Below are positions 7,253 to 61,704 of a stretch of 64,000 bases of DNA, in pieces. The notes beneath the pieces are model-generated. The model saw only the letters and a program-made list of their open reading frames with translations. It had not been told where the DNA came from and searched no databases. The DNA is taken from assembly GCA_964572155.1 (NCBI GenBank), contig CAZNDZ010000001.1, positions 79,300-143,299 on the forward strand, given 5' to 3'. The translations under genes were made by a program, and so were the position numbers. Within the stretch, counting starts at the first letter, position 1. Each line of letters opens with the position of its first letter. The DNA comes from an uncultured Planctomycetales bacterium (GTDB taxonomy: Bacteria; Omnitrophota; Gorgyraeia; Zapsychrales; Fredricksoniimonadaceae).

Positions 7253-7293
7253 ATTCTGCCAAAAATGCTATTAAAATTTTTGTGCAGGCCTAA

Positions 7294-10427: not shown

Positions 10428-10428
10428 A

Positions 10429-11753: not shown

Positions 11754-11773
11754 GTAAGGTTCCTTCCTAGGTA

Positions 11774-12925
<1,152 letters not shown>

Positions 12926-12932
12926 ATATTTC

Positions 12933-13262: not shown

Positions 13263-13274
13263 ACCCTGCTCCTC

Positions 13275-39215: not shown

Positions 39216-41224
39216 GAACCTATCCTTTTATAAGCGATCAAATATGTCCCCACCTTAAAAGGCATGTAATGTTGGCTGATGTGCTTAACTAATCCTGTCA
39301 ATGCGCTTTGGCCTTGTTGCTGTAACTCTTTCTTCTCAATGAAAATATACTGAGGTTTTTCTTTCTCAATTTGCGCGATGGTTTTCCTTAATCGGTCATA
39401 GGTATGTAAATACGTTAAACGCGCTTGAGGATTATCCATTAGCGACGATTCAATCAACGGTGAATAATAAAAGAATGGCGGACGATTGGCTTGCATGAGG
39501 ATTTTTGTTTCAAAACTACTGATGATAGCGATGCGTTCATTGGGCTTAGTCAGCACAGCAATAAAGGCGGCATCATCTTTAAAATCAAAACGTTGTTGAT
39601 AATAACCAACCTCTTCCTGCCATTTAAGGCCACTTAAATTCAAAATGTTGGGATAATAGGTAAATAAATAGCTCGTCATCAATATAGGCAACATGATGAT
39701 GGCCGCAAGCTTCCTAACATACTGTGGCAGAATTTCTTTAAGCCAAAGACATAAAATTAAAACAAGTGGGATGCAGACAGCGTAATAACTTGTCACACCC
39801 GAGCGATGAATAAAATAATGATATAAGCCCAAACCATATAGGCTTAAAAACAACGTGAAGTACTGCTTACGTAAAAAGCTGTACACCATATTGCCGGCAT
39901 AAAAAATGGGGATCATAAAGCCGATGATAAACGCAAAATATTGTTTTTCTTTAAGCCCCTCCGTCATAGGCAATGCGCCCCAACCTTGCACAAATAAACC
40001 TGCGAACTCAAATTGATGCTGCCAAAAGCTAGGTGTCAACACTGCGTGTGGTTGTAGGATCGCCAGAAAACAAAATGCTAAAAATAAAATCGCAGGAACA
40101 ACAATAAAGACTTTCTTCCATTGGGTTAGCAACAAATACGCGCCTAATGCTGCCATCAGGTAAACCCCAACATCAATCATCCAACATAAAGACAAAGCCA
40201 CTGAAACAACGCTCATATAAAACCATCGGCGCTGTTGTGTTTGTAAATATTGCCAAAATGCAAAAAAGAATATCACATCTGGCAAGTGACGCAAAGCCGT
40301 CGCACTAGGGTATTGCCAAACAAGCGGAGCTACTCCCCAATGAAACAACTGCAACTTAATGGCCAATAATGTTCCAAAAACCGCAACCGCTCTTGACCCC
40401 AACCAAAACACTATAAAAAAATACAGAGCCGCATAATACGCAAGATTAAGACCAATCAACAACGTTACAGCCCCTTGATAATTAAATTGATGCAGTAAAT
40501 TAAGGATGTTCGACAAGACAATAGGAAGGCCGACGCTATATTGACTGGTGATATCACTGTTTAACACTAGGTGCTTTAAATGCGCCCACCCTGGGGTCAT
40601 GAGCATGCTATCTAAATGATAGAATTGATCGTGCACAAACATACGGCCAAGAACACGATCCATTTGAAATGGAAATAACAACACAACCATCCCTACAAGA
40701 AATGCAAAATCCCAAGCCATAGGAAACGTTACGGATGCAAATGATACTCGACGCTCCCATAATTTAAGCATCACCTTCTCAATCTCTGGCCAAAAAATAT
40801 GAGCAAACACCGTCGCTATCATTACCCCATACATCATAACCACCGCCCATAACGGCGCGCCCCATACAAGGACTTTAAACACAAAAAAGATCTGCACAAA
40901 TATGCAACATCCGCTAAAAATGATGTAATTGATATAGCGTCGCCATAAACCTTCTTGGTCTATGTGATTGCGCAGATGCCTAACCCATAGGAACATCACC
41001 GCCATCGCTATGATCACAAAAAGCCTAAACAATAGCATTTCTCTCTCAGGGCGAACCTCTGGCAAATAAACAGGAAAAATTTTCGCGACAAAATCTGTTT
41101 TCTTGTAGGGAATGAATTGAATGGTCGCAGCAATGAAGATAAGGCATTGCAGGGCCTGCAAAAAGCTCATTGCAGCCAACGTCACAACATTAAGAAAGCC
41201 AAGTTCTTTGAAAATTTTCTTCAT
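39212..41224 (-). CDS. family-A large polytopic membrane protein (copy A5)
   Basis: 670 aa; LPEVRPEREMLLFR, AHIFWPEIEKV, HDQFYHLDSM...ITSQYSVG, LFHWGVAPLVWQYPSAT, IAIISSFETKILMQANRPPFFYYSP, YIFIEKKEL, YMPFKVGTYLIAYKR. Confidence 0.7.
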   Translation of the reverse strand: MKKIFKELGFLNVVTLAAMSFLQALQCLIFIAATIQFIPYKKTDFVAKIFPVYLPEVRPEREMLLFRLFVIIAMAVMFLWVRHLRNHIDQEGLWRRYINYIIFSGCCIFVQIFFVFKVLVWGAPLWAVVMMYGVMIATVFAHIFWPEIEKVMLKLWERRVSFASVTFPMAWDFAFLVGMVVLLFPFQMDRVLGRMFVHDQFYHLDSMLMTPGWAHLKHLVLNSDITSQYSVGLPIVLSNILNLLHQFNYQGAVTLLIGLNLAYYAALYFFIVFWLGSRAVAVFGTLLAIKLQLFHWGVAPLVWQYPSATALRHLPDVIFFFAFWQYLQTQQRRWFYMSVVSVALSLCWMIDVGVYLMAALGAYLLLTQWKKVFIVVPAILFLAFCFLAILQPHAVLTPSFWQHQFEFAGLFVQGWGALPMTEGLKEKQYFAFIIGFMIPIFYAGNMVYSFLRKQYFTLFLSLYGLGLYHYFIHRSGVTSYYAVCIPLVLILCLWLKEILPQYVRKLAAIIMLPILMTSYLFTYYPNILNLSGLKWQEEVGYYQQRFDFKDDAAFIAVLTKPNERIAIISSFETKILMQANRPPFFYYSPLIESSLMDNPQARLTYLHTYDRLRKTIAQIEKEKPQYIFIEKKELQQQGQSALTGLVKHISQHYMPFKVGTYLIAYKRIGS

Positions 41225-42552
41225 GAATATTTTATAAAATGCTCAGCATTACGCCGTGCCAAAGCCATGATGGTGGCTTGCGGATTAACCCCTGGCGTCG
41301 AAGGTAAAATACTCGCATCATTGATATAAACATTGTCAAAGCCATGTAATTTTCCAAAAGAATCAACCGCGGCTGTGCTTACATCTTCCCCCATAGGGCA
41401 AGAACAAAACAAATGGATCGTCGATAAATTTACTTGGGCAGAATGATAAATATTTTTAACACCTGCGGCTTTGAGCAATTCTTCCAACCGCTTTAATCCC
41501 AAATTTAACAAATCCCAATCCGCTTTAACCATGGGCAACTTAACCAAAGGTTCGTCGATAAATGGGATGGCTCTTACTTTCCCTGGGGTGGATGCCATGA
41601 TCAAGGCATAAAAGATGGCCCGACGGCGCCACGCATGTAAGTGCTCTTTTAAATCTTTGCGCTCGGCTAACCACAACGCCAAATGCGGCAACCCACTATA
41701 CGACCCTCCTAAAGAAATTTCCGGCTTAAACTCACTGACCTGATACACCGGCACACCTTCTTGAGGATCATTGATGTCACGGTCGAATTCTGCGACCACA
41801 CGCACAGCAGGGTGCATGCGCAAATTATTGCCAATATTTTTTTTGATGCCGCTACGACGTAATAGCAAAGGCGTTTGAATCGCCCCTGCACAAATAAACA
41901 CATGATTAAATTTAATCTTTAATAATCGGCTATTGGCTTCCGTCGCCCTTTTCCCTGAAATATACAAACGCCCGACGCGTGATTGTGGGATCAAACGACC
42001 GCCGGCTTTGATAAATTGCGGAATGGCCGTCTCACTCATGGATTGCTTTTTATTGGTCGCATGGTCCCATAAACGCGGGACTTCGCCAGCTTGCCATCCA
42101 AGCTTTGCTGCACCTTGCTGCAAGATCGCTGATGCGGCAGGCAATTTTCCCTTGATGCGTTCCACTTTTAACATCTGCTCATTCTTTAAGAAAAATGACT
42201 CCATCACTTCAGCAGAAAAATTTTTAAGCTTATATGTTTGTCCCCAATCATCCAATGTCTTTGGCAATGGCCGATGGTATAACCCTGCGTTGATCTCACT
42301 TGCACCACCAACACAACAGCCTTCCAAATATGAAACCTTAGGACTTCCGACGCTAACCGCAAGTCCACCATGACGATACTTCAAATCCATTTCTTCCAGG
42401 GAATACGCCGGGGCTTGGTCGATGGCCACATGCTTGCCTTCTTCTAATAAAATGACGTCCCGCCCAGCTTGAGCCAACAGCATCGCTGTCACCGCACCGC
42501 CTGGGCCAGAACCGATCACCAAACAATCACATGTTAATTTTTCTTTGGGCAT
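41221..42552 (-). CDS. GMC-family FAD-dependent oxidoreductase
   Basis: 443 aa; N-terminal Rossmann CDCLVIGSGPGGAVTA; GMC C-terminal signature HLFCSCPMGE...GFDNVYINDASILPSTPGVNPQATIMALA. Confidence 0.7.
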   Translation of the reverse strand: MPKEKLTCDCLVIGSGPGGAVTAMLLAQAGRDVILLEEGKHVAIDQAPAYSLEEMDLKYRHGGLAVSVGSPKVSYLEGCCVGGASEINAGLYHRPLPKTLDDWGQTYKLKNFSAEVMESFFLKNEQMLKVERIKGKLPAASAILQQGAAKLGWQAGEVPRLWDHATNKKQSMSETAIPQFIKAGGRLIPQSRVGRLYISGKRATEANSRLLKIKFNHVFICAGAIQTPLLLRRSGIKKNIGNNLRMHPAVRVVAEFDRDINDPQEGVPVYQVSEFKPEISLGGSYSGLPHLALWLAERKDLKEHLHAWRRRAIFYALIMASTPGKVRAIPFIDEPLVKLPMVKADWDLLNLGLKRLEELLKAAGVKNIYHSAQVNLSTIHLFCSCPMGEDVSTAAVDSFGKLHGFDNVYINDASILPSTPGVNPQATIMALARRNAEHFIKYS

Positions 42553-42875
42553 AGGGTAAAATATATGAACAATGTCATCTTAGTAAAAAAAGCTGCAACA
42601 TCACGGCAAGAGCCAATCTTACTCTCCTGCCACTGACGCAATTGTTTTTGTCGACGGGTAAGATCTTGATTTTCAAAGAAAGAAGCCGCACCAAATACGC
42701 CAGACCAATTAAAAACATAAATCACCATGATCATAAGCGTCCGCAATAAGGTCGGCATGCCCATGATCTTGCGGTATAATTTCTCTGCGGTTTGAACAAC
42801 GATGTGATGTTCTAAATCGCTGACATAGGCGGGACACAAAATGCCTTGTACAATACAGAAAATGATCTTATCCAA
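42534..42875 (-). CDS. small hypothetical membrane protein
   Basis: 113 aa; one or two hydrophobic segments; sits between the GMC gene and B3 with overlaps typical of coupling. Confidence 0.3.
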   Translation of the reverse strand: MDKIIFCIVQGILCPAYVSDLEHHIVVQTAEKLYRKIMGMPTLLRTLMIMVIYVFNWSGVFGAASFFENQDLTRRQKQLRQWQESKIGSCRDVAAFFTKMTLFIYFTLCPKKN

Positions 42876-45369
42876 CTGCTCTCCTAACTGCCCAAATCAC
42901 CACGCCCATGCTCAAAAGAATGGACAATGGTATTAAAACTCTTAATGGTGAATTTGGCCAATATTTAAACAAGACTTGATGTTTCCCTGCTGATATAGGA
43001 ACGCCTAAAAAATACCCATTAACTTTAGATATCGCTGCACGTTTGCCATCAATCCACACTTGCCATTTTTCATCATAGGGATAATGCGCAATCAACCAAC
43101 CATCTGTGCTTGCTTGAAACGTAACCCCAAGCTGATCACTCGTATTACGCCAAATATTTAAAATATCCCCGCTTTGTACTAAGCGTAATGTTAACTTTAT
43201 ATTGCCCTTAAGGTATCCCTTTGGCAACCCAAGTACTAAGTATCCATCTTTGACATTATTAACATCAAAGGTAAATGACTCTGCAATGGCACCTTGAACT
43301 GGTGTAAGCAAGCTTTCTAACCCTTCTAATATAAGCCGATTACGATCTTGTGTAAATATCGCTGTTGATTCATAGCTTGGAAAACTCTTTGGTAATTTAA
43401 TGGCATATAGCACAGGATTTCCATTTTTAATCATTTGCGCTTTGCTTAATGGTATTTGAAATTCACGGACACGCGCCGGTAACATTTGACGTGGACCTTC
43501 AGGTGTACCGCTAGCTAAAACTAAAAATCGTTGGTCTTGAGCCAATGCTTGATATAACCTCTGATTATTTCCCCAATCTTGGTATATTTTTGGTCTTGGT
43601 TCATAAATATCCGCATGATCAGCAAATCGCTCTAAGGGCATATACGAAAAGAAATACCCATAATGACCTTGGAATGTATGCATATGCGGATCCGTGGCTG
43701 AAGGCAGGATGCGGAAATATTCTCGGAAAGGTAAAATTTTAGGATTCTGATAGTCGACTAACAAAGAACGCTGATCTTCAAACCCATCGTATACGCTTGG
43801 CTTAATATGTCGTCCATCTTTGATAGATAAGTATCCACCACGATTAGCAAATTCACCATGATATTGATTGTTGTCATAATATTGTTTTAATGCAAAAACA
43901 TCCACCCCCATAAAAACACAAAACAAGAATATGCCAACATGTTTGCGTGCTACTCCATTTAAGTCGATTAACTTTTTCTGGCAAACATAAACATAAAGAA
44001 TAGCTACGCTTAACATCAACAACATATACGTTTTAAACTCAAATGACAAAAACCACGCTGATAGAAAAAGTAACATCAGATAAACCGCTAAAAGCACCCT
44101 TAGCCGTATCTGACTTACACGGTCATGCAGCATGTCATAGCCCGATTGCAAACCAAATGCAACTAAAGGGAAAATTAAGTATGGCAATAACAAAACAGGC
44201 ATGTGATAGCTTCGCAATAAAAAACTAAACGGATTCGTTAAGGCATTGATCCAATGAGCGACGGACAAAAGACCCGTGTCATTGAGCGGCACATTGGTCA
44301 AGAGCACAAGTGTGCTAGCTATGGCAAAAACATATTTGGCTCGAATTTTTGAACAGATGAGGCCCATGAAAATCAACAAGACAACAGCAGCACCCCAGAA
44401 TATCCAAGATTTTTCCCAAGTTGCATTTGTAAAATCAATCAACTTTTCAGGCAACTCTGTTAATGGCAAAATTGTTTCGCCTTTTGGAGCAAAATACTTC
44501 TGTGGATTAAACATCCTGCTAAATCGACCTTGTGTGCCGTTTAAACCAGAACCTTCCACAAAGAAATCTTTTCCGAGTATATTGAAAAACATCACGCTCG
44601 GCAAAATAATGCACGCGCCTATAACAATGGTAATACCTATGGCTTTAAGATTTTTTGGTGCAACCATTCCTGTAAATGAAATGTTGCGACGATGAAAAAT
44701 GATTCCATAAATCAAAGCAACCATCATTAAGAAATGAACATTTTGATAAAAATATCCAGCACCCAACAAGGGATTCCCTGCGATGGCCACGATTAACAAT
44801 AGTACAAAACCAATAAAATCACGCGTTTGAAATTTCTCGACATAACTAATGATGAAATATGCCAAAAAAGGGAAATAACTATATAGATTGTTTGCAACAA
44901 GGCCTAAATACATCGACGACGATAAGAATGTGTTAAGTATCACTAGCGCAATGATGATCATGCCGTCATTAAGTTTAAATTTACGTAATAACACATAACC
45001 GCCAATGAGCCGCAATAAAATATTAAAGGCTGGGTGAACAAGACTAAAAATATGTTGGAATGCTTCGCCTGGGTTTGATTGAAATGGTAATAAAACAATC
45101 CCCACAAGCGCTGTTAAAATATTAGACAATGTATACAGGCCATGCCCCAAATGGTTGAACGCAAAGGTCATCCCATCATATCGGTCAAATATTTGCAATC
45201 CGCCTTGAAAGAAATTAGAAATCAGAAAAAATACGCTTTCATATGGGATCTCAGCGTCGTGGTGCCATAACATGCTTTGATTGTGAAACCAGAAAAGGTC
45301 GCTAAATATCACCATGCAAGCGCACAAGGTAAATGCAAAACTTAAAGTAATGATCTTTAATGCATTCAT
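42868..45369 (-). CDS. family-B large membrane protein (copy B3), YfhO-like
   Basis: 833 aa; NFFQGGLQIFDRYD; C-terminal PYDEKWQVWIDGKRAAISKVNGYFLGVPISAGKHQVLFKYWPNSPLRVL plus terminal TM. Confidence 0.6.
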   Translation of the reverse strand: MNALKIITLSFAFTLCACMVIFSDLFWFHNQSMLWHHDAEIPYESVFFLISNFFQGGLQIFDRYDGMTFAFNHLGHGLYTLSNILTALVGIVLLPFQSNPGEAFQHIFSLVHPAFNILLRLIGGYVLLRKFKLNDGMIIIALVILNTFLSSSMYLGLVANNLYSYFPFLAYFIISYVEKFQTRDFIGFVLLLIVAIAGNPLLGAGYFYQNVHFLMMVALIYGIIFHRRNISFTGMVAPKNLKAIGITIVIGACIILPSVMFFNILGKDFFVEGSGLNGTQGRFSRMFNPQKYFAPKGETILPLTELPEKLIDFTNATWEKSWIFWGAAVVLLIFMGLICSKIRAKYVFAIASTLVLLTNVPLNDTGLLSVAHWINALTNPFSFLLRSYHMPVLLLPYLIFPLVAFGLQSGYDMLHDRVSQIRLRVLLAVYLMLLFLSAWFLSFEFKTYMLLMLSVAILYVYVCQKKLIDLNGVARKHVGIFLFCVFMGVDVFALKQYYDNNQYHGEFANRGGYLSIKDGRHIKPSVYDGFEDQRSLLVDYQNPKILPFREYFRILPSATDPHMHTFQGHYGYFFSYMPLERFADHADIYEPRPKIYQDWGNNQRLYQALAQDQRFLVLASGTPEGPRQMLPARVREFQIPLSKAQMIKNGNPVLYAIKLPKSFPSYESTAIFTQDRNRLILEGLESLLTPVQGAIAESFTFDVNNVKDGYLVLGLPKGYLKGNIKLTLRLVQSGDILNIWRNTSDQLGVTFQASTDGWLIAHYPYDEKWQVWIDGKRAAISKVNGYFLGVPISAGKHQVLFKYWPNSPLRVLIPLSILLSMGVVIWAVRRAVG

Positions 45370-45372
45370 GAA

Positions 45373-45768
45373 TTACCTGCCTGCCAACTGAGATAATTTG
45401 ATCTTATATTGTTGGGTATTGTATTCAGACAATTGCAAGGCCATGGATAATTTCTTAACCGCGGAGGCAACATCGCCACGAGCTTCGTCTTCCAGTGCCA
45501 TATGATATAGCGCGTCGGTATTATTATTCATCGACATGGCGGTTAAAAATTGATTTTGTTTTTCCATGCTCGCCACTTGCCCCTTTAACGTGGATAACAT
45601 GGCATCCGTCTTGCGATAATCTGCCCTAAAAACAAGCACCATGGCCAAATACACCGCCACGACCACAATCACGGCTTTCACCCCAAAATCCAACCACGTT
45701 TTCATTAATGTGTTCATACATTCCCTTTCATGTGTTTGTGCCAAATCTGCAGGGTTAACAATCCCCAC
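45373..45768 (-). CDS. small single-TM protein with coiled-coil/TPR-like tail (true start possibly 45717)
   Basis: 131 aa ORF; hydrophobic helix AVIVVVAVYLAMVLVF; overlaps asnB at its 5' end unless an internal start is used. Confidence 0.3.
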   Translation of the reverse strand: MGIVNPADLAQTHERECMNTLMKTWLDFGVKAVIVVVAVYLAMVLVFRADYRKTDAMLSTLKGQVASMEKQNQFLTAMSMNNNTDALYHMALEDEARGDVASAVKKLSMALQLSEYNTQQYKIKLSQLAGR

Positions 45769-47594
45769 AAGAGCCGGCTATTATCTTTTTGTTTGCGCCA
45801 ATGTGTTTGACATAGATCGTCGACAACCGATGCATTAAATAGTTGGCCCACAACACCATCTTTTAAACTATCAGCCACATAACTTTTAAGAGGCCCGTCG
45901 ATCCAGCCAGCTATGGGCGAGGTTAGACCCTTCTTTTTACCACGGATCACCGGCTTGGGTAAATAAGCACTCGCCACATCTTTGAGGATGCGCTTGGTCT
46001 GACGCAGATTTACTTTATAGCCATACGGCAATGAACAAGCAAATTCTACGACGTGATGATCTAACATAGGAACGCGTGCCTCTAAACCATGAGCCATGGT
46101 CATGCGATCAACTTTTCGTAAATGATCATTGAGCAAATACGTATTTAAATCAACGTTCATCAACTGATTGATCCTTGATAAATTCTGGGCTTTGTCAAAA
46201 TAACGCTCTGCGACGCTAAATGGGTTATAGCCACCTAAACTGGCAAAATGATCTGTTTGCCATAAAGCACGTTGTTGTTCTAAGGAAGCCACTTGCCGCC
46301 ACGTCATATGCGCATGCTGATAATCAACGCCTATGCCTTGCATCAATTGCTTTAAACGAAAATCAAGTGAGATGCGTTTATGAGAGACGGGCATGTTCGC
46401 AATATTAGTGCTAATTAGCTTTCTGACATAGGCGGGAGTTTTTTGCCACATGGCTTGATAGTATGGCGCTTGATAGGTCGGATAACCGCCAAACAATTCA
46501 TCACCCCCATCGCCCGTTAACACCACTTTTAATTTTTGTCGTGCGGCTTTAGCTAGTAAATACGTCGGCACATAGCTGGCATTGCCCAACGGCTCATCAA
46601 ACGCTTTGATGATGGTTTCAATCAAATCTGGATTCACATCTTCCATGATGTGTATATCTAAATCAACACCACATCGTGCAGCCGTTAATTTTGCTAAGTC
46701 GGTCTCATCATAACTTTTGTCGGCAAAACCAATGCCAAAAGATTGCAATCTTCCCGATGCACTTTGTGCCGCGATGGCCGTGACCAACCCCGAATCAATG
46801 CCGCCACTTAAGAACGTTCCCAACGGCACATCCGCGCCTAGATGAGATGCCACGGCCTTTTTAAGCAAACCATCTAATTGATCTTTGGCATCATGATAGG
46901 TAATAGATTTTTCTTGATCGACGGGGATTTGCCAATAAGGCTTGATCGACATCTGCCCATTTTTAATGATGGCATAATGCGCAGGCGGCAATTGATAGAC
47001 ATTCTCAAATATTGTTTCTGGTTCGCAAATATACCAATAGCTTAAATAATCACTGATGGCTTTTAAGTTAAGCTTCAAATCAAAGAAGCCGCTTTTAACG
47101 ATAGGGGTCAATTCAGATGAAAACAGGATACGTCGAGCATCTTGCGTATAATACAACGGTTTTTGACCCATGCGATCTCGGGCCACAAACAAGGTTTTTT
47201 CTTTCGCATCCCATATGCTAAACGCAAACATCCCATTTAATTGCTTTAAGCAATCAACGCCCCACGCGATATAGGCTTGCAATAATACTTCCGTATCACT
47301 ATGCGTCTTGCAATAAAATCCCTTATCTTTAAGGATCGTCCTTAATTGTGCGTGATTATAAATCTCCCCATTGAAAACAATGGTGTATCGCCCGTCACCC
47401 GACGACAATGGCTGATGACCACCTGCTAAATCAATGATGGATAAACGCCGCTGGCCCAAGGCCACATGGCCGCTAATAAAGACACCTTCATCATCTGGGC
47501 CACGGTGTGTTAAATAATTATTTAGGGTGGAACATTGGTGCTGATCAATGCAGCTCTTAGCATCGAAACTTAGATGGGTGATGATCCCGCACAT
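45714..47594 (-). CDS. asnB: asparagine synthetase (glutamine-hydrolysing) family amidotransferase
   Basis: 626 aa; N-terminal MCGI (Cys2 nucleophile), GATase-II domain, PP-loop SGGIDS. Confidence 0.8.
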   Translation of the reverse strand: MCGIITHLSFDAKSCIDQHQCSTLNNYLTHRGPDDEGVFISGHVALGQRRLSIIDLAGGHQPLSSGDGRYTIVFNGEIYNHAQLRTILKDKGFYCKTHSDTEVLLQAYIAWGVDCLKQLNGMFAFSIWDAKEKTLFVARDRMGQKPLYYTQDARRILFSSELTPIVKSGFFDLKLNLKAISDYLSYWYICEPETIFENVYQLPPAHYAIIKNGQMSIKPYWQIPVDQEKSITYHDAKDQLDGLLKKAVASHLGADVPLGTFLSGGIDSGLVTAIAAQSASGRLQSFGIGFADKSYDETDLAKLTAARCGVDLDIHIMEDVNPDLIETIIKAFDEPLGNASYVPTYLLAKAARQKLKVVLTGDGGDELFGGYPTYQAPYYQAMWQKTPAYVRKLISTNIANMPVSHKRISLDFRLKQLMQGIGVDYQHAHMTWRQVASLEQQRALWQTDHFASLGGYNPFSVAERYFDKAQNLSRINQLMNVDLNTYLLNDHLRKVDRMTMAHGLEARVPMLDHHVVEFACSLPYGYKVNLRQTKRILKDVASAYLPKPVIRGKKKGLTSPIAGWIDGPLKSYVADSLKDGVVGQLFNASVVDDLCQTHWRKQKDNSRLLWGLLTLQIWHKHMKGNV

Positions 47595-47600
47595 AGAGGA

Positions 47601-48377: not shown

Positions 48378-48380
48378 GGA

Positions 48381-49793
48381 TTATCCTTGTGATTCTTGAT
48401 GTGCTGCACTGCCATATAAGCCACCAAAATAATTGCGATAATCAAACGCTTGCTTTTGGGTTCCAAGCAACTTATCCGCCATCTCAATCGCAAAGCGGAT
48501 GGAATGATCAGAATTGTTATACCAAAACGCACCGCTGCGGCCTAATAAATGAATGCGTTTAGAATAGTTCATAATCCCTGCCTTCACACGTCCAAAATCT
48601 TGTGCATAGCGACGATGATAAATCGGATATGTATCGAGGACAGGCTCAACATGCACCGCATCGACATATTTTCTATTCTTAATAAATCGCATGCCAACCA
48701 ATTCATCTAAAACACCATCTTTATGTTCTTGTGGGTTCTTAAAATAAAATGGCTCTTTTTGTGAATCGGTTAATTCACAAATCATGTTGTAATAACCTTC
48801 TTTACACGTGTATGGCAAAAATTCTTTCATGCAGGTGATGCGGCTGATCAAACTATCCCCACGGCTCACATAAATCCATTGTGCTTTTTGTTTGCCCACA
48901 CCCTCGTCTTTACAGATGACATTATAAAAAATTGTATTTAAATAATGCACCGACGTATTCTGAGGCGCAATGAGACTGCTTAGGGCATTTAAATTCCCCG
49001 TCCACAAAAGCTCGGTAAATGTAAAATCTTTGCCCTTTTGGGTTTTAACCTCAAATGTTTTGCCATTATCATTAATCTTTGAGATTGTATCAGACAACAC
49101 CAAATGAAATCCTTTCATCCCTTGGCATAAACCCAACATTTGCTCATAAAAACCACCAAAACCACCCTCCAACGGATATAAGAATTCTGTCTCTATCTTG
49201 GCGGGCAAGAGCAATGACTTAAACAAATCCATCAATGAGTTGGCATTAACCCGCTTATCAATGACCGTACGATTAATCCCCGTCGATGCCCAGTCAGAAT
49301 GAATATCCTCAGTATCCCAACGCAAGAATTTCTGTGTATATGGTTTAAAGAAAATACCATAAAGTGTTTCGCCATATTTTGAATTGATATATTGATGAAA
49401 GGAGGTCTTATCTGTAATCGGTCGTTCTTTTAAAAGATCCAAGGCACATTTGACCGATACATTAAGCGGCATCTTGATTAAGTCTTTGGTTTGCAGCGGC
49501 CATTCAAAATATTGATTTAAGAAGAATACCTTGGTCGATCGACCAATGGTTGCAATATGCCCTTGTGTGATCTCTTGGATAAAATCTAAAACAATGGGGT
49601 CATCGGTGTGAAAACGTTTTGGCCCTGTATCAAAAATATGTCCATCGTATTCATAACTTTTAGCCAAGCCACCGACACGGTCATCGCGTTCTATTAATAA
49701 AACGCTCTTACCCCCTTTGAGCAATTTATATGCCGCGGTTAAACCGCTAGGGCCGCTACCAACAACGCAATAATCATAATGTGTTTTATTCAT
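48381..49793 (-). CDS. FAD-dependent oxidoreductase, UDP-galactopyranose mutase (GLF)-like
   Basis: 470 aa; YCVVGSGPSGLTAAY FAD fold; GPKRFHTDD and IFFKPYTQKFLRWDTEDIHSDW parallel Glf motifs GPHIFHT and FFKGYTxKQWG. Confidence 0.45.
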   Translation of the reverse strand: MNKTHYDYCVVGSGPSGLTAAYKLLKGGKSVLLIERDDRVGGLAKSYEYDGHIFDTGPKRFHTDDPIVLDFIQEITQGHIATIGRSTKVFFLNQYFEWPLQTKDLIKMPLNVSVKCALDLLKERPITDKTSFHQYINSKYGETLYGIFFKPYTQKFLRWDTEDIHSDWASTGINRTVIDKRVNANSLMDLFKSLLLPAKIETEFLYPLEGGFGGFYEQMLGLCQGMKGFHLVLSDTISKINDNGKTFEVKTQKGKDFTFTELLWTGNLNALSSLIAPQNTSVHYLNTIFYNVICKDEGVGKQKAQWIYVSRGDSLISRITCMKEFLPYTCKEGYYNMICELTDSQKEPFYFKNPQEHKDGVLDELVGMRFIKNRKYVDAVHVEPVLDTYPIYHRRYAQDFGRVKAGIMNYSKRIHLLGRSGAFWYNNSDHSIRFAIEMADKLLGTQKQAFDYRNYFGGLYGSAAHQESQG

Positions 49794-49804
49794 GTATCGC
49801 TCAA

Positions 49805-50575
49805 TTAAACTTTAAATGGCTTTTGAAAATACACGGCGCTACGATCAACGCGAATTAATGTGATCTTGTCCTCTAAACCTTGCTCTTTAATAAAATCGGT
49901 GAGCGCTGCCTTGCATCCTTGATGAAACCAATAATCATCAACGACAACATATCCTCCAGGAACGACCTTAGGATAAAGATAATCTAGGGGAGCCTTGACG
50001 CAATCATACCAATCGGTATCAATGTGCAATAAAGCAATCGCCTCTGGTAATTCTTGCTTTAAGGTGGTGTCGAGCCAGCCTTTGACGACATGAACATCGT
50101 CAAAACTAAGATGGAGTTTACGGAAAATGTCTTTCACGTTATTCAATCCACCTTTACAAAACCCCACGAAGTAGCATTCTTGCTCACCTTTACTGTCCTT
50201 CTCCGTCGGTGGTGGCAAACCTTCAAATGAGTCATACAACCAAATCTTGCGTTTGATTTTTTTGCCTGCATCTGCGTAACTGCGTGCAATCATGGCCGAC
50301 GCTCCGCCATTCCAAGTACCACACTCAACAATGTCGCCTTTAGTCCCCGACACTTCGATTTGCTTCGTCAAACGATATAAATTAAGCAAACGCGTGGTCG
50401 AGAGCATGGAATAAAATGGTTTGATCCGTAAAATACAGCCGTATAAACGCAACAATGAACGCGAGGGCTTTTGAATAAAAATGATAGGCATTTCAAGTAA
50501 GGACAACATCAATGACATGGACTTACCAAAAAAATAGTCTTGGGTGAGTACTTTTAAATAATTAATTTTGAACAT
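49805..50575 (-). CDS. TylF/MycF-family (macrocin-O-methyltransferase-like) SAM-dependent O-methyltransferase; start uncertain (ORF to 50713)
   Basis: LYDSFEGLPPP and ECGTWNGG motifs typical of the TylF family. Confidence 0.6.
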   Translation of the reverse strand: MFKINYLKVLTQDYFFGKSMSLMLSLLEMPIIFIQKPSRSLLRLYGCILRIKPFYSMLSTTRLLNLYRLTKQIEVSGTKGDIVECGTWNGGASAMIARSYADAGKKIKRKIWLYDSFEGLPPPTEKDSKGEQECYFVGFCKGGLNNVKDIFRKLHLSFDDVHVVKGWLDTTLKQELPEAIALLHIDTDWYDCVKAPLDYLYPKVVPGGYVVVDDYWFHQGCKAALTDFIKEQGLEDKITLIRVDRSAVYFQKPFKV

Positions 50576-51284
50576 GTGCTTTTTTGTCTCCTCCCAAATA
50601 AACATCTTGGTATAAATCCCAGACCGCCACAAACGCCGCTTTAATGCTCTTAAAACGCAAGGCGCTTGATTTTCCTTTTTGACGATGCACGTGAATGAAA
50701 GGAATCTCAACACAGCTGTGACCTTGTCGCATCATCTTGACCTTACATTCTGCGAGCACGGTTAAACCTGTTGAATTGATTTTCAATGCTTGCAATATTT
50801 CCCGTCGAGCAATGAAAGGTCCATTGAAATATTTCATCCTAAGCCCAAATAGAATATTCATCAATAATGTAAAGAATCCAGAAAGAGCTCGACGTAAGAT
50901 TGGGCGATCATGGGTATTGCTTGTATAAGGAGAAATAATGTCGGCGCGTTCTATATTGACTATCAAATCACGAAAAGATTCCCATGACATATCATTATCC
51001 GACGTATACACCCCAACATAATCTTTGGTGGCAAGTTTTACACCACGTTGATAGGAATAGCCGTAGCCACGATTAACCTCATTGGAAACACAGCGTATGC
51101 GCTGATCTTTGGCGGCGCGTTGTGCGGCGATCTTAGGGGTATCATCCTGACTTCCATCGTCGATGACAATGATTTCAAGATCACTAACCAAACCATCGAC
51201 GGCGCGTAAAACATTATCGATGGCTTCGTTTAAATTCTCTTGTTCATTAAAGGCGGGCAAAAGTACGGTTAAAGATATCTTCAT
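50562..51284 (-). CDS. GT2 glycosyltransferase, polyprenol-phosphate sugar synthase-like
   Basis: 240 aa; LTVLLPAFNEQENL...IVIDDGSQDDT...DNDM; DPM1/ArnC-like. Confidence 0.7.
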   Translation of the reverse strand: MKISLTVLLPAFNEQENLNEAIDNVLRAVDGLVSDLEIIVIDDGSQDDTPKIAAQRAAKDQRIRCVSNEVNRGYGYSYQRGVKLATKDYVGVYTSDNDMSWESFRDLIVNIERADIISPYTSNTHDRPILRRALSGFFTLLMNILFGLRMKYFNGPFIARREILQALKINSTGLTVLAECKVKMMRQGHSCVEIPFIHVHRQKGKSSALRFKSIKAAFVAVWDLYQDVYLGGDKKAHVQN

Positions 51285-51811
51285 TTTCGACCAATCATTT
51301 TTATAAGAAAGCCCGTGATAATATCAAAAACAAAAAAGACATTGGTGGCTGTTCCCACACGGTACACGCCATTTTCTTCAACCATATAATTAGAGCCGGT
51401 CAATCGTCGTACACGAATACGGGCAATGATCTGTGCATTATAACAACGGTCTAATTCTGCCTGCGTCAACCCATGCGGCGATGCTTTAAAAATTTCTCGA
51501 ACCAACCGCATGCGCACCGAGGTTTCATATGGCCCAAATATGCACAGCACATAAACGAAACATAACACGCCCTGCAATAATGTTGAAAAAGCCGCAATGC
51601 AAACCCACACCATGAGCGGCAAAGTACTTACCTTCAACAAAAACAATGCCGTAGTTATTATAAGCGGAAAAATCATGGTCATCGCACAGGTGCGCCACAA
51701 TGATTTTAATAAATCATCCGCGCTCATGCGCCTGCAGGCCATCATGTGAATCCCTAAGAACAATCCAAAAGACGTCGCGGCAACCAAAATTGTCAGAACA
51801 TCCATCACCAT
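51281..51811 (-). CDS. membrane protein with C-terminal soluble (winged-helix-like?) domain; paralog of 51813..52328
   Basis: About 4 TM then SVRMRLVREIFKASPHGLTQAEL...GVYRVGTATN; ORF extends to 51853 but M15 avoids the overlap. Confidence 0.35.
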   Translation of the reverse strand: MVMDVLTILVAATSFGLFLGIHMMACRRMSADDLLKSLWRTCAMTMIFPLIITTALFLLKVSTLPLMVWVCIAAFSTLLQGVLCFVYVLCIFGPYETSVRMRLVREIFKASPHGLTQAELDRCYNAQIIARIRVRRLTGSNYMVEENGVYRVGTATNVFFVFDIITGFLIKMIGRK

Positions 51812-51812
51812 A

Positions 51813-52328
51813 TCACCCGCCCGCTTCCCGACCAAGCAAAACTTGCATGCCATTTAAAATCATGGCAATGCTTTTTCCAGATGCTGTTAACATGTAGCGG
51901 CCATCTTTTTGAACCACGCACCCGCTTTGTTGCAATTCACCCATGCGCGTCCCAATGAAATTCTCTGCTTCAATGCCACGAACCGCATCATCAAATGTCA
52001 ACGTACTTTGCTTTTGTAGCAATAATAAGATTTTCTTAGATGGGCTCATCAGCTGCGTTAACACATAGAAGGTCAAATACGTTGGGATACCAAGGATATA
52101 AACAAACCCCGACGTAAAAATAAAGGGCAGCCCCCAAAATGTTTCAGGATTGATCCATCCACCGTGAGAAATCACAAGAGAACCTACAACATAAACACCA
52201 AAGAACGCACCGGCCATGAAGATAAATACTTTTGATTGAAGCCCTGCCGTAACGGTTTGGCGACAAAATATGATATGAAATGTCACGGCAAGTAAGAAAC
52301 ACAACAACGCAAAAACAAAATAAAACAT
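51813..52328 (-). CDS. membrane protein with C-terminal soluble domain; paralog of 51281..51811
   Basis: 171 aa; about 4 TM then SPSKKILLLLQKQSTLTFDDAV...GRYMLTASGKS. Confidence 0.35.
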   Translation of the reverse strand: MFYFVFALLCFLLAVTFHIIFCRQTVTAGLQSKVFIFMAGAFFGVYVVGSLVISHGGWINPETFWGLPFIFTSGFVYILGIPTYLTFYVLTQLMSPSKKILLLLQKQSTLTFDDAVRGIEAENFIGTRMGELQQSGCVVQKDGRYMLTASGKSIAMILNGMQVLLGREAGG

Positions 52329-52332
52329 AAAA

Positions 52333-53010: not shown

Positions 53011-53068
53011 ATTACCCTTTCTTGGTTGGTGATCTAATAAAGATATAATAAAGGACGGTGTGGTTAAA

Positions 53069-54931
53069 TCAAGGATTTTTGCGCTTTAAAGCAATCAGAT
53101 ACTTACCCTCTGCAACAGGCTCATAGTGCTGATGAAAGTATGATATTAGGATCATAAGCGTCTGAAAATGCTCATAATAGGGCGCGGGCAATCCGGAATA
53201 AAGTTTTTTCTCAACAAAGGCATACTCTAAGCGGGTTTGGTCTAATTCAGCCAACGTATGCTGCATCCGCTCCTTGGTCCAAAGCACGCTACCTCTAAAT
53301 TGCAGCACATCTAATTGATCGGTATAAATCACAGCAAAGAAGTAAAAGAAAGGCTTACGCTTAGCCTCCATTAGGATCTTAACTTCGCGACCTGAAACCA
53401 AAATCACCCGTTCTTCTGGTTTGGTCAGCTGTTGAATCAAGGCAATGTCTTGGGATATGTCAGGTTCTGCAGGCACCACATTGTTCTTTTTAGCAGCAAA
53501 ATTCCAAATGCCTGGGTAATCCCGCACCAAAGGATTTAAAACCAAGAGCAGACAAACACCAACCGCAACACTGGCCCACGCGATGCGTGACATTAACACA
53601 GATAGTCGCCCTATACCCAACGCGATCACATAGATGATAATGGCAACCAAAGGCAAACAAACCGCAGCATAGCTCGTCGGCGCTGAACGCACCACATAAT
53701 AGTGATACAACCCTAAACCATACACCGATAACACGCAAATAAAAATATGTTCCCAATCCAATTTCTTTAAGAAGCATGAAGTCGCAAAAAATATTAGCGC
53801 AAGCACATAAAGGATTGGTACGGCTAAGCTAAGAGCAAATGCAATATATTGATGCGCGTCTAAGGAATAAGTCATGGGCAAGGCGCCAAAACCTGATAAA
53901 AATAATCCTGCAAATTCAAAGGTGTTATACCAAAACGCCTTTTGAAAAATCGCTGGGCCTTGGATGATCCACAGGATCAAAAAAGCTACTAGAAATGGCA
54001 ACGCTAATACAGCCGCCATCAAACCAGACGCATTCAACCACTGTTTGCGTTGTTGATATACATAAAACACCCCATATGTTGCGAGTGATAACCACAAATA
54101 AACACCTGCATCCAACGTCCAAACCAAGGCAAGCCCAACGCCCACGGACGCCAACCACAGATAAATGCTCTTGCCTGTTCGTAAATGCGCTAATAGCGCA
54201 AGTAAAATGGGAATGTCCCACCAAAATCGAATAACGGTGGCACTAGGAAATTGCCAGACGAGCGGAAAAACACCTGGATGAAACATTTGAACACTGATGC
54301 CTGCAAAAACGCCGATCAAAGCCGCGATGCGTAAATGCATCCAAATACGTAAGAACAGATAAAACATGCAAAAATAAATAGCCCCCAAGGACATTTCAAA
54401 TGACAGGATGCCAAGATAATTAAAATGCTTGAGCGCATTTAATATATTGGCTGCAATGACAGGAATTAAAATGCTGTATTCGCTAATCTGATCAACATTG
54501 AGTTTTAAACCACCAATGACAGCCAAGCCTGGGGATGTGAAAAAACTATCGACGTGAAAACACCTATCCGTGATGCGCGCAAATACCGCTTGAGATGATG
54601 GGACAAAAATAAAAAAGAAGACAATAAAACACACAACCGCATCAATGACATTAAAACGAATATCTTTTTTAGGCGAAGCTTGATTAACCCCGTGTGAAAA
54701 ATGGGGTTTAAATATAAAAAACCCTATCACTTGAGCAATGATGCCTGCGACAACAAAAATGCGGAAGAATAAAACCTCACGTTCAGGCTTAAAATCACTG
54801 AGCCATTCCCCAAAAACACCGACGGATAAATCTAAAGCAATGGGATGAAAACTAAAATACCAAATCGCAAGCCCCGTGACAAGGGACGCCACCGTGACGC
54901 TACATAACGACAACAGGATGATTGGAAGCAT
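53069..54931 (-). CDS. family-A large polytopic membrane protein (copy A6)
   Basis: 620 aa; FKPEREVLFFR, DRCFHVDSFF...QISEYS, MFHPGVFPLVWQFPSAT, YPGIWNFAAKKNNVVP, VILVSGREVKILMEAKRKPFFYFFA, YAFVEKKL, YEPVAEGKYLIALKRK. Confidence 0.7.
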   Translation of the reverse strand: MLPIILLSLCSVTVASLVTGLAIWYFSFHPIALDLSVGVFGEWLSDFKPEREVLFFRIFVVAGIIAQVIGFFIFKPHFSHGVNQASPKKDIRFNVIDAVVCFIVFFFIFVPSSQAVFARITDRCFHVDSFFTSPGLAVIGGLKLNVDQISEYSILIPVIAANILNALKHFNYLGILSFEMSLGAIYFCMFYLFLRIWMHLRIAALIGVFAGISVQMFHPGVFPLVWQFPSATVIRFWWDIPILLALLAHLRTGKSIYLWLASVGVGLALVWTLDAGVYLWLSLATYGVFYVYQQRKQWLNASGLMAAVLALPFLVAFLILWIIQGPAIFQKAFWYNTFEFAGLFLSGFGALPMTYSLDAHQYIAFALSLAVPILYVLALIFFATSCFLKKLDWEHIFICVLSVYGLGLYHYYVVRSAPTSYAAVCLPLVAIIIYVIALGIGRLSVLMSRIAWASVAVGVCLLLVLNPLVRDYPGIWNFAAKKNNVVPAEPDISQDIALIQQLTKPEERVILVSGREVKILMEAKRKPFFYFFAVIYTDQLDVLQFRGSVLWTKERMQHTLAELDQTRLEYAFVEKKLYSGLPAPYYEHFQTLMILISYFHQHYEPVAEGKYLIALKRKNP

Positions 54932-55710
54932 TAATATAATCCGAAGAAATGTTTGCTTTGACTGCCATCAATACCAACATTATCACCGAAGAAATACCCC
55001 GCCTTCTGTGAACACAGGAAAGCAACAACACTGCTAACCTCGTCGGGAGTTCCAAAACGACCGAGCGGCAGGCGCTCATCAATATAACGTTTCACATGAT
55101 CGGGTTTGGCCAACAATGTCCGATCCCAATAACTACCTTTGGCAATGATCGCGCCTGGCATGATGGCGGAAACAACAATGCCATCCGTCGCTAATTCACG
55201 GCCAATCTGCGCGGAATATTCTGCCAAGGCGGCTTTTGGTACACAATACGTTACAGGCCCACTATTTTCCATCGCTGCGGTTGATGCAATATGCACAATA
55301 CGCCCCCACCCCTGATGTTTCATATAAGGGACGCACAATTCATTAAACTCAACCGCAATTTCAAAGTTAATGCGAAATGCCCGACGCCAGTCTTTGATGG
55401 AACAATAATGATCCGTGATCCCTAAGGTGTCGCCGATATTGTTAACAATGATATCTGGATTACCAAATTTTTTTATGGCAGCTTTGATGGCTTTGGCGGG
55501 TCCGCCTTTTTTAGTTAAGTCACAGGCAATGGACGCATGCCCCTTATCGGCGCCGCCCATTTCTTTAAACACCTCTTGGATGCTCACCAACGACCTGCCA
55601 ATGACCAAGACATGCGCATTTTCTTGGGCCATACGCAAGGCAATGGCACGACCTATGCCTCTTGTTCCGCCGGTGACTAAAACTTTTTTATTGGCTAACC
55701 CTAAGTCCAT
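54931..55710 (-). CDS. SDR-family oxidoreductase (start chosen at MDLGLANKKVLVTGG)
   Basis: VLVTGGTRGIGRAIA, catalytic Y..K; ORF extends to 55791 but would overlap the upstream SDR. Confidence 0.7.
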   Translation of the reverse strand: MDLGLANKKVLVTGGTRGIGRAIALRMAQENAHVLVIGRSLVSIQEVFKEMGGADKGHASIACDLTKKGGPAKAIKAAIKKFGNPDIIVNNIGDTLGITDHYCSIKDWRRAFRINFEIAVEFNELCVPYMKHQGWGRIVHIASTAAMENSGPVTYCVPKAALAEYSAQIGRELATDGIVVSAIMPGAIIAKGSYWDRTLLAKPDHVKRYIDERLPLGRFGTPDEVSSVVAFLCSQKAGYFFGDNVGIDGSQSKHFFGLY

Positions 55711-55721
55711 GATGAAAAATA

Positions 55722-56513
55722 TCAGGATCTTTCTACGTTGTAATAATGACGCGCTTGACCGCCGTCGATAGGAATAATGGCGCCTTGGCAATACGTTGCT
55801 AAACTAGAGCACAGCATGGCAACCATGGGGCTTATTTCCTCTGGTTTTCCAAAACGACCCGAAGGTGAATTTTGTCGGAGAAATTCTTTGGCATCATTAG
55901 GCTTGGTTTTAGACACCTTTTGCCAATAACCATCCTCCATGAGCATGGCCCCTGGCAAAACAGCCGACATAACGACATTACTCGCCTCAATCGCCAAAAT
56001 TCTTCCCATGCATCGTGTGTATGCCGTTAAGGCCGCCTTGCTTGCGCAATACGATACCGTCGCTGAATGTTCCATCGATGCACCGGAAGAAAGATTGATG
56101 ATGCGCCCCCAATTGCGTTGTTTCATCTGTGGGATAAATAAATTATTGATCTCAATGGCAATTTCTAAGTTATTGCGAAATATCTTTCGCCATCCATCAA
56201 TCGTTGTATGTAATTTTCCTGTATATGCATAGGTGTCTAGGCAATTGACGATGATATCAACATGCCCAAATGATTTCTTAACATTGTTAAAGAGCTTCTT
56301 GGCATTGCCCTCACGCACCAAATCAATAGCGAATGCTGCATGACCCAATTTACTACCGCCTAAGGCATGTAGGATGCGATTCATTTTAGGAGCATCATCA
56401 GAAACTACTGCAACGATAACACCTTCGTGGGCTAATTCAAGGGCAATGGCTTTGGCTAAACCATGATGCGCACCGACGATCAATGCTCTTTTTTGCTGAA
56501 TATCTAAATTCAT
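55722..56513 (-). CDS. SDR-family oxidoreductase
   Basis: 263 aa; ALIVGAHHGLAKAIA, YCASK catalytic motif. Confidence 0.7.
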   Translation of the reverse strand: MNLDIQQKRALIVGAHHGLAKAIALELAHEGVIVAVVSDDAPKMNRILHALGGSKLGHAAFAIDLVREGNAKKLFNNVKKSFGHVDIIVNCLDTYAYTGKLHTTIDGWRKIFRNNLEIAIEINNLFIPQMKQRNWGRIINLSSGASMEHSATVSYCASKAALTAYTRCMGRILAIEASNVVMSAVLPGAMLMEDGYWQKVSKTKPNDAKEFLRQNSPSGRFGKPEEISPMVAMLCSSLATYCQGAIIPIDGGQARHYYNVERS

Positions 56514-60237: not shown

Positions 60238-60262
60238 ATAATTTTTTGATATACTATATCAC

Positions 60263-61702: not shown

Positions 61703-61704
61703 TT

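Follow-up and report, generated by a model that had tools for sequence, protein, structure and literature searches.

A conserved cassette encoding a UGM-like flavoprotein, a GMC oxidoreductase and an AsnB-like amidotransferase, and its possible role in tailoring sugar donors for GT-C glycosyltransferases

The genome of an uncultured Planctomycetales bacterium (assigned to Omnitrophota in GTDB; assembly GCA_964572155.1, contig CAZNDZ010000001.1) contains an extended array of genes for membrane proteins and glycosyltransferases, which was analyzed in a stretch of 64,000 nucleotides (positions 79,300 to 143,299 of the forward strand; hereafter the window, to which all coordinates refer). Embedded in this array are the genes of a flavoprotein resembling UDP-galactopyranose mutase (UGM), an oxidoreductase of the GMC family that depends on flavin adenine dinucleotide (FAD), an AsnB-like amidotransferase, and a short-chain dehydrogenase/reductase (SDR). 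The explanation that we favor, albeit tentatively, is that these genes constitute a conserved cassette for the tailoring of a sugar donor used by GT-C glycosyltransferases, inside a very large membrane-glycosyltransferase operon. A search of the literature yielded no description of the cassette. The nearest relatives of the window are found in metagenome-assembled genomes (MAGs) of Omnitrophota and in MAGs labeled 'Planctomycetales' (84% identity). From upstream to downstream, the cassette and its immediate neighbors comprise the following genes (lengths in amino acids, aa):

48381-49793, minus strand: UGM-like FAD flavoprotein (470 aa), with Pfam matches to NAD_binding_8 and Amino_oxidase and with UGMs as relatives in the PDB and by fold.
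47601-48377, minus strand: classical SDR (258 aa; SDR258), matching adh_short (5e-39).
45714-47594, minus strand: AsnB-like glutamine-dependent amidotransferase (626 aa), matching Asn_synthase (9e-92) and GATase_7 (2e-46).
45373-45768, minus strand: small membrane-anchored protein (131 aa) encoded after the AsnB-like gene, with one hydrophobic segment and no Pfam match.
42868-45369, minus strand: GT-C glycosyltransferase of the YfhO family (833 aa; Pfam YfhO 1.6e-14, above the cut-off).
42534-42875, minus strand: small hydrophobic partner of the GMC protein (113 aa), with one hydrophobic helix and no Pfam match.
41221-42552, minus strand: GMC-family FAD oxidoreductase (443 aa), matching GMC_oxred_N (4e-28) and GMC_oxred_C (6e-19), both above the Pfam cut-offs.
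39212-41224, minus strand: polytopic membrane protein (670 aa) of the second paralogue family in the window, with about 13 hydrophobic segments and no match in Pfam or NCBIfam.

The gene array on the minus strand is unbroken between positions 22533 and 60237. Neighboring genes abut or overlap, which is consistent with a single operon. The gene of the 670-aa membrane protein overlaps the GMC gene by 4 nt and is translationally coupled to it, the small open reading frame (ORF) at 42534-42875 overlaps the start of the GMC gene by 19 nt, and a spacer of 3 nt separates the flavoprotein gene from the SDR258 gene downstream. All ORFs named in a preliminary description, made from the sequence alone, were recovered on the minus strand at the same positions. 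Direct reading of the sequences revealed no signal peptide in any of the four soluble enzymes, which suggests that their chemistry takes place in the cytoplasm or on the inner side of the membrane.

To place the cassette in a broader context, the neighborhoods of divergent flavoprotein homologues and 42 loci obtained by scanning species-representative genomes were compared by BLAST. This combination of genes is found again in about 15 loci from different phyla, indicating that the arrangement is not due to chance. The orthologue clade of the flavoprotein (at least 54% identity) comprises MAGs of Omnitrophota, 'Planctomycetales', Rhodospirillales, Acidimicrobiia, and Leptospiraceae, together with Tistlia consotensis. 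The flavoprotein is accompanied most constantly by the AsnB-like amidotransferase (13 of 14 cassette loci), which had been left out of the pathway model in the preliminary description; the TylF methyltransferase and the small membrane ORFs had likewise received no mention there. The small hydrophobic ORF and the GMC gene accompany the flavoprotein in 10 of the 12 loci that could be assessed, and a YfhO-like gene adjoins the cassette in most loci. Orthologues of SDR258 are located next to the flavoprotein in at least eight loci (L006, L008, L012, L013, L021, L024, L025, and L055). Homologues of the small protein at 45373-45768 directly follow AsnB in L015, L018, L019, L020, and L065, and an orthologue of the 670-aa polytopic protein follows the GMC gene in L012, L013, and L015. 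B12-radical-SAM enzymes are frequent near the flavoprotein in the orthologue clade.

In a distant clade from Acidobacteriota (about 41% identity), the flavoprotein occurs without AsnB, GMC, or SDR, but is located between two genes of polytopic membrane proteins (present in 21 and 18 of 27 loci, respectively) and is accompanied by a methyltransferase. The resulting unit of methyltransferase, polytopic protein, flavoprotein, and second polytopic protein is found in L028 and L035 (at approximately 7100-13700) and in about 20 other loci; in six of the Acidobacteriota loci, there is an additional gene of the nitroreductase family, which could encode a flavin reductase for the mutase-like enzyme. 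The cassette loci L008, L010, and L055 of other organisms contain genes of the heptose pathway or of the GDP-mannose-dehydratase type, among them genes for GmhA-like SIS proteins, HldE-like PfkB+CTP_transf proteins, and several epimerases, as well as genes for E1-type thiamine pyrophosphate enzymes; these genes hint at varied sugar substrates. In L006 and L008, the cassette is adjoined by LPG_synthase_TM proteins.

The preliminary description had called the flavoprotein Glf-like and had made this claim depend on its grouping with mutases instead of amine oxidases or protoporphyrinogen oxidases (PPOs). Sequence profile, fold, and active-site residues agree in placing it among the mutases. The protein has an FAD-binding Rossmann motif (GSGPSG) at its N-terminus. 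Eukaryotic UGMs are the top matches in a single-sequence search of the PDB, several of them aligning over nearly the whole protein. With a family profile built from 45 homologues, UGMs occupy the first 27 places among the distinct sequences (E 2.7e-26 to 4.6e-13), followed by amine oxidases that align solely via the N-terminal Rossmann part. The AlphaFold2 (AF2) model (pLDDT 88) displays the three-domain fold and the FAD site of UGM; a Foldseek search with this model retrieves the UGMs of Aspergillus fumigatus and Trypanosoma cruzi as best matches (query TM-score, TMq, 0.79) and, among the top 30, almost exclusively UGMs (TMq 0.78-0.80), whereas PPOs reach 0.73.

The flavoprotein is about 19% identical to UGM. 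In an alignment with the A. fumigatus enzyme (AfUGM), its residues W306, Y308, R318, Y389, R419, Y425, and N427 correspond to W315, Y317, R327, Y419, R447, Y453, and N457; they are invariant in the 45 homologues and retained also in distant members of the family. We take R327 of AfUGM to be the essential diphosphate-binding arginine and the other aligned Tyr, Trp, Arg, and Asn residues to form the sugar/phosphate site. A loop of low confidence in the model (residues 176-187), which follows R175, coincides with the mobile Arg flap of UGM. The best NCBIfam model is PRK07208, an uncharacterized family annotated as 'hypothetical', whose cut-off is not reached. The entire family is large, with about 1000 clusters at 50% identity (E<=1e-30). 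The flavoprotein is predicted to be a pyranose-to-furanose mutase that acts on a sugar-1-phosphate ester; whether the carrier is a nucleotide or polyprenyl phosphate is uncertain.

Two natural fusions link the flavoprotein family to membrane glycosylation. In P0363 (L057:554-2452), the UGM-like flavoprotein carries a C-terminal GtrA_DPMS_TM domain; the contig is just 2.9 kb long, so that the gene neighborhood is uninformative. In P0297 (L058:5945-9436), the flavoprotein is joined to a domain of about 12 transmembrane (TM) helices that is homologous to the polytopic neighbors in Acidobacteriota (E 1e-63); no other glycan genes accompany the fusion gene, which is isolated in its locus.

The GMC protein scores far above the Pfam cut-offs for both the N-terminal (99 vs. 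23 bits) and the C-terminal domain (69 vs. 24.6 bits). It has a GSGPGG motif for FAD binding and two residues, H380 and N423, that are invariant in 45 homologues and presumably represent the catalytic pair of GMC enzymes, as assigned by motif comparison. Since profile searches show it to be roughly equidistant from choline dehydrogenase, pyridoxine 4-oxidase, pyranose oxidase, cholesterol oxidase, and cellobiose dehydrogenase, its sequence assigns it to an orphan subfamily. In all contexts, the GMC gene is immediately preceded by an ORF of 100-140 aa that is weakly conserved and encodes a single hydrophobic helix; the products share the motifs KI..MP and FY.KM..F.YFS. The small partner in the window (42534-42875) is probably the membrane anchor of the GMC protein. 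Its interpretation as a Tat-signal 'hitch-hiker' subunit of the kind found in membrane sugar dehydrogenases was rejected because it has neither a twin-arginine motif nor a Pfam match.

A scan of metagenomes for the GMC subfamily yielded 80 loci. Only 4 of the 36 long loci carry the cassette. The recurrent arrangement in the others consists of a HAD-UbiA fusion protein (about 520 aa), the small ORF, the GMC gene, and one or two 'epimerases' of the extended-SDR type, with HAD-UbiA upstream of GMC in 24 of 38 and an epimerase downstream in 19 of 36 assessable loci. The sole relatives of the HAD-UbiA protein in the PDB are structures of the decaprenyl-phosphate phosphoribosyltransferase of Mycobacterium tuberculosis (Rv3806c; E 2.9e-28), and its best NCBIfam matches are its own model (PRK08238), followed by decaprenyl-phosphate phosphoribosyltransferase models. 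A neighbor-joining tree resolves the GMC proteins into three clades, one linked to the cassette (which includes the protein from the window), one linked to UbiA and epimerases, and one of stand-alone proteins; the cassette-linked and UbiA-linked clades are about 44% identical. Judging from gene order, the GMC subfamily in the sister clade holds the position that DprE1 occupies in mycobacteria. The preliminary description had also made its hypothesis depend on the GMC protein not grouping with choline or alcohol dehydrogenases of unrelated context. It does not do so, given its membership in an orphan subfamily, its constant small partner, and the location of a large sister clade beside HAD-UbiA and epimerase genes.

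An operon composed of HAD-UbiA, small ORF, GMC, and two tandem extended-SDR epimerases is present in L097 (8058-13546) and also in L102, L105, L115, L121, and L127. By analogy, it looks like the mycobacterial pathway for decaprenyl-phosphoryl-arabinofuranose (DPA) with a GMC protein in place of DprE1. Neither this operon nor a GMC gene beside a UbiA-type phosphoribosyltransferase was found described in the literature searched.

The AsnB-like protein has the N-terminal MCGI sequence with the nucleophile Cys2 and a PP-loop (FLSGGIDSG). It passes the generic asparagine synthase model TIGR01536 (471 vs. a cut-off of 267), but the closest model is TIGR03108, an uncharacterized amidotransferase of XrtA/PEP-CTERM systems, for which it remains under the cut-off. 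SDR258, whose best match in the PDB is 17-beta-hydroxysteroid dehydrogenase 1 (17-beta-HSD1), is predicted to be an accessory reductase or epimerase partner. A specific relationship to DprE2 was rejected because no DprE2 model is among the best 25 NCBIfam matches and comparison with an approximate DprE2 sequence gave only a generic match of 59 residues. The two other proteins described as SDRs are indeed members of this family (adh_short 3e-37 for 54931-55710 and 2e-30 for 55722-56513); the longest ORF of the former extends to 55791.

That the GMC gene is embedded among GT-C-like genes is confirmed by three neighbors that exceed the Pfam threshold for YfhO. The AF2 model of the YfhO protein at 42868-45369 (pLDDT 87.6) yields exclusively GT-C folds as its best matches, all of them weak (ArnT, EmbA/B, AftD, STT3, and PglB), and the protein is the predicted user of the lipid-linked donor. 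The array encodes a total of ten large polytopic proteins in two paralogue families (22533-45369 and 53069-54931). The YfhO-like family has three members (833, 857, and 865 aa). The second family, which has no match in Pfam or NCBIfam, has seven: proteins of 707, 739, 796, 670, 620, and 413 aa and the product of a gene split into 154 and 588 aa. The 670-aa protein encoded next to the GMC gene is paralogous to the 620-, 707-, 739-, 796-, 588-, and 413-aa proteins.

Upstream of the cassette, the array contains several soluble enzymes and small membrane proteins:

49805-50575, minus strand: TylF-type sugar O-methyltransferase (256 aa; gene call from L001), matching TylF (1.6e-46).
50562-51284, minus strand: soluble family 2 glycosyltransferase (GT2; 240 aa), matching Glycos_transf_2 (2e-23).
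51281-52328, minus strand: pair of small membrane proteins (190 and 171 aa) encoded upstream of the GT2 gene, with 2-4 hydrophobic segments each and no match in Pfam or NCBIfam.
54931-56513, minus strand: tandem pair of FabG-like SDRs with 39% mutual identity, matching adh_short_C2 (1e-37 and 1e-34).

The preliminary description had counted two polyprenyl-phosphate-sugar synthases of the GT2 family in the region 41221-56513, but only one of them (50562-51284) lies there; the second is encoded on the plus strand at 21435-22181. For the GT2 within the region, the term 'Pol-P-sugar synthase-like' is fair because its closest relatives in the PDB are dolichol-P-mannose synthase (DPMS; 5mlz, 1e-12, over the full catalytic domain) and ArnC (2e-10); it has no TM helix and stays far below every NCBIfam cut-off. 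Homologues of this GT2, of TylF, and of a FkbH protein encoded farther upstream are absent from all 30 related loci. In sequence comparisons, the GT2 is lineage-specific and lies outside the conserved cassette, and the TylF methyltransferase likewise appears to be a lineage-specific decoration. Homologues of the FabG-like SDR pair occur in one of the 30 loci (L019); the two small membrane proteins at 51281-52328, which could be an anchor or a flippase, are not conserved in these loci.

From the observed protein families, active-site residues, synteny, fusions, and position of the sister-clade GMC proteins, we infer the following substrates, step order, and product. In this organism, a hexose would be activated and loaded onto polyprenyl phosphate at the cytoplasmic face by the DPMS/ArnC-like GT2 (50562-51284). 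The UGM-like flavoenzyme, with reduced FAD, would then contract the pyranose to a furanose, acting either on the nucleotide sugar or on the lipid-linked sugar; a lipid-linked substrate is suggested by the fusions with GtrA and polytopic membrane domains. The GMC protein, tethered to the membrane via its small partner, would oxidize a hydroxyl group of the lipid-linked furanose. Subsequently, SDR258 may reduce the keto group with inverted stereochemistry, which would amount to an epimerization of the DprE1/DprE2 type, or a primary alcohol may be oxidized through to the carboxylate. The AsnB-like enzyme would convert the carboxylate into an amide, or an N-acetyl group into an amidine. After flipping, the YfhO-type GT-Cs (42868-45369 and its paralogues) would add the modified sugar to a surface glycan.

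Several observations weigh against this scheme. The flavoprotein has no match to Pfam GLF (PF03275) at E<=0.01, and its score with TIGR00031 (Glf) is only 52.4 bits (cut-off 303.75) and stems from the N-terminal 160 residues. The His loop of its clade reads G57-P58-K59, with Lys for His, instead of GPH or GGH, and the uridine contacts N163 and W167 of AfUGM are lost (T153 and L157), although more distant family members retain both the GPH/GGH loop and the uracil-stacking Trp. The earlier label 'UDP-galactopyranose-mutase-like' is thus supported by the PDB relatives and the fold but not by the curated Glf thresholds, the His loop, and the uridine contacts. A tblastn search of the window with HAD-UbiA proteins found nothing that could represent the UbiA step, which uses phosphoribosyl pyrophosphate (PRPP), and there is no homologue of the extended-SDR epimerases in the window either, so that the analogy to DprE1 is borrowed from the sister clade. 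An orthologue of SDR258 is absent from L014-L018, i.e., from 5 of the 14 cassette loci or about a third. The stand-alone clade of GMC proteins occurs in contexts unrelated to glycans. At the beginning and the end of the scheme, the GT2 is not conserved, no ORF of the island matches the GtrA-type flippases (PF04138), and the fold matches of the YfhO protein to GT-C enzymes are weak (E 2e-3, TMq about 0.3).

The suggestions in the preliminary description are affected to different degrees. The SDRs had been regarded as pathway partners, which fits SDR258, a part of the conserved set, but not the two FabG-like SDRs, which are not conserved with it. The analogy to DprE1/DprE2 gains from the position of the sister-clade GMC proteins, but the fold of the oxidase is different, there is no entry via PRPP, and the SDR is dispensable. 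The central hypothesis of a furanosyl or epimerized lipid-linked donor is strengthened by comparative genomics yet unproven; the window lacks a UbiA gene. A more specific version seems doubtful: the mutase would act on polyprenyl-phosphate-linked sugars, the GMC protein would be a non-homologous, membrane-tethered substitute for DprE1, and the amidotransferase would complete an oxidized or epimerized, amidated hexofuranosyl-phospholipid donor. If true, this would constitute a bacterial route for the extracytoplasmic addition of furanoses via GT-C enzymes that is independent of PRPP.

None of the ORFs of the island has a VAO-type (vanillyl-alcohol oxidase) domain, which leaves the GMC fold and the UGM/PPO fold as candidate oxidases, and the roles of the two flavoenzymes might be the reverse of those proposed above. 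The flavoprotein and SDR258 would then form an epimerase pair of the DprE1/DprE2 type, the GMC protein would take the C6 alcohol to the uronic acid that is amidated by AsnB, and no furanose would be formed. We consider this unlikely. It is kept alive by the occurrence of GMC and AsnB without SDR in five loci (L014-L018), and the genes of flavoprotein and SDR258 are neighbors with almost no gap between them, both in the window and in at least eight loci. Four-electron oxidation of alcohols to acids is catalyzed by GMC enzymes such as choline oxidase and 5-hydroxymethylfurfural (HMF) oxidase, and Pfam scans of the island ORFs detected no Ugd-type dehydrogenase that could supply a carboxylate for AsnB. 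By contrast, the conserved residues of the flavoprotein are those that bind diphosphate and sugar in UGM, the wider family retains the His loop, and the fold is not known to oxidize alcohols. Moreover, it is the relatives of the GMC protein, not those of the flavoprotein, that occupy the position of DprE1 beside a phosphoribosyltransferase-like gene, and the flavoprotein of Acidobacteriota occurs without any SDR.

Two further readings are less likely than the tailoring of a sugar donor. The cassette might modify not a sugar but the lipid carrier or a different membrane lipid (polyprenol, hopanoid, or a carotenoid-like compound), with the flavoprotein as a desaturase, isomerase, or reductase of the CrtI/PPO type and GMC and SDR as alcohol or aldehyde oxidoreductases. 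Such a role would explain why Pfam and the source annotations label the flavoprotein as amine oxidase or PPO, why PPO is its second-best fold (TMq 0.73), and why cholesterol oxidase is the top single-sequence match of the GMC protein in the PDB, albeit via the C-terminal 60 residues. It would agree also with the similarity of SDR258 to steroid and ketosphinganine reductases, the membrane partner of the GMC protein, and the stand-alone occurrence of the GMC pair in Myxococcota. This reading is nevertheless quite improbable: the residues specific for sugar and phosphate binding in UGM are kept, and a lipid substrate would leave AsnB without an obvious function. The cassette is consistently linked to YfhO-type GT-C genes and is often accompanied by nucleotide-sugar genes (GmhA/HldE-like, epimerases, dehydratases), and a phosphoribosyltransferase-like gene goes with the sister GMC clade. 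It is very unlikely that the genes share no pathway at all and merely represent housekeeping or decoration enzymes (choline or alcohol dehydrogenase, asparagine synthetase, PPO-like oxidase, and FabG) in a variable glycan island. Each protein passes only generic family models (TIGR01536 in the case of AsnB, and all SDR matches being generic), and glycan islands are mosaics, as seen from the lack of conservation of the GT2, the methyltransferases, and the FkbH module. Yet a core of four or five genes is retained across phyla in changing surroundings. In addition, the genes are translationally coupled, and the fusions join the flavoprotein to membrane glycosylation domains.

Other modules of the window lie outside the cassette. 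The region 56514-63228 encodes an FkbH-domain protein (above the cut-off of TIGR01686), an FkbM methyltransferase, and a DUF1574 protein, together with a divergently transcribed DltB-like MBOAT protein (E 1e-51) and a fusion of MaoC dehydratase and SDR. Judging from its gene content, this region is a probable Dlt-like O-acylation module; there is no acyl carrier protein among the small ORFs near FkbH. The N-terminal region of a methyltransferase of 471 aa (30485-31900) resembles the GT2 at 21435-22181 (BLAST E 5e-7); the protein may be a GT2-methyltransferase fusion that is not flagged by Pfam. The edge of the island (20100-21426) encodes a CxxCxxCC protein and a 292-aa protein homologous to the C-terminal domain of phosphatidylglycerol lysyltransferase (LPG_synthase_C), which occurs here on its own.

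Furanoses and the epimerization of lipid-linked donors are central to the mycobacterial cell wall and its drug targets (DprE1), and their role in the O antigens of Gram-negative bacteria has been recognized only recently. If the proposed function of the cassette is correct, a GMC-fold oxidase in the position of DprE1, a UGM-like family wired to polytopic proteins, and an amidotransferase would broaden the enzymology of donor tailoring and extend it well beyond Actinobacteria and Proteobacteria. In uncultured phyla, Omnitrophota and Acidobacteriota among them, the genes might then serve as markers for glycans that contain furanoses and amides.

One of the closest known systems is the mycobacterial DPA pathway, which comprises UbiA/Rv3806c, Rv3807c, DprE1, and DprE2, followed by the GT-Cs of the Emb/Aft type. 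In both cases, an FAD oxidase and an NAD(P)H-dependent reductase are proposed to remodel a polyprenyl-phosphate-linked furanose for use by GT-C enzymes, and the GMC gene of the sister clade follows a HAD-UbiA gene resembling Rv3806c and precedes SDR epimerases. However, the oxidase has the GMC fold and a small membrane partner, whereas DprE1 belongs to the VAO fold; the UbiA/PRPP step is missing from the window, the SDR is optional, and there are two additional components, an amidotransferase and a UGM-like enzyme. The noeCHOP genes of rhizobia are orthologues of the DprE type, not of GMC (PMC5080398). The pentofuranose side chains of Gram-negative O antigens are made by three-component systems that combine PPPRS-PRP, a MATE flippase, and a GT-C of family GT136, with an auxiliary epimerase (Kelly et al. 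2024, PMC11127046). They share with the proposed pathway a cytoplasmic lipid-linked furanose donor, its optional epimerization before export, and its use by a GT-C, and HAD-UbiA fusions like their ORF15 accompany the sister GMC clade. The epimerases in that study are ORF13-type SDRs or homologues of DprE1/E2 only; the paper contains none of the terms GMC, FAD, or oxidoreductase. In the window, by contrast, the GT-C is of the YfhO type, a MATE gene was not seen, and ring contraction instead of PRPP would be the source of the furanose.

With Glf/UGM, the flavoprotein has in common the three-domain fold and the FAD site. Both also possess the essential Arg, the two Tyr residues, and, at the sugar/diphosphate site, Trp, Arg, and Asn. 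Unlike Glf, the flavoprotein is encoded beside, or fused with, polytopic or GtrA domains. Glutamine-dependent PP-loop amidotransferases related to AsnB are present also in other glycan loci; those of O antigens form uronamides (WbpS/WbtH type) or acetamidino groups (WbpG/PseA type). The protein in the window differs from them in being nearest to TIGR03108 and in the absence of an accompanying UDP-sugar 6-dehydrogenase. Finally, the combination of a putative GT2-type polyprenyl-phosphate-sugar synthase with a GT-C of the YfhO family resembles the extracytoplasmic glycosylation of teichoic acids by CsbB/GtcA/YfhO (reviewed in PMC8035078). Here, however, no homologue of GtrA/GtcA was detected, three YfhO paralogues are accompanied by seven polytopic proteins of the second family, and the array includes donor-tailoring enzymes that are absent from the Gram-positive systems.

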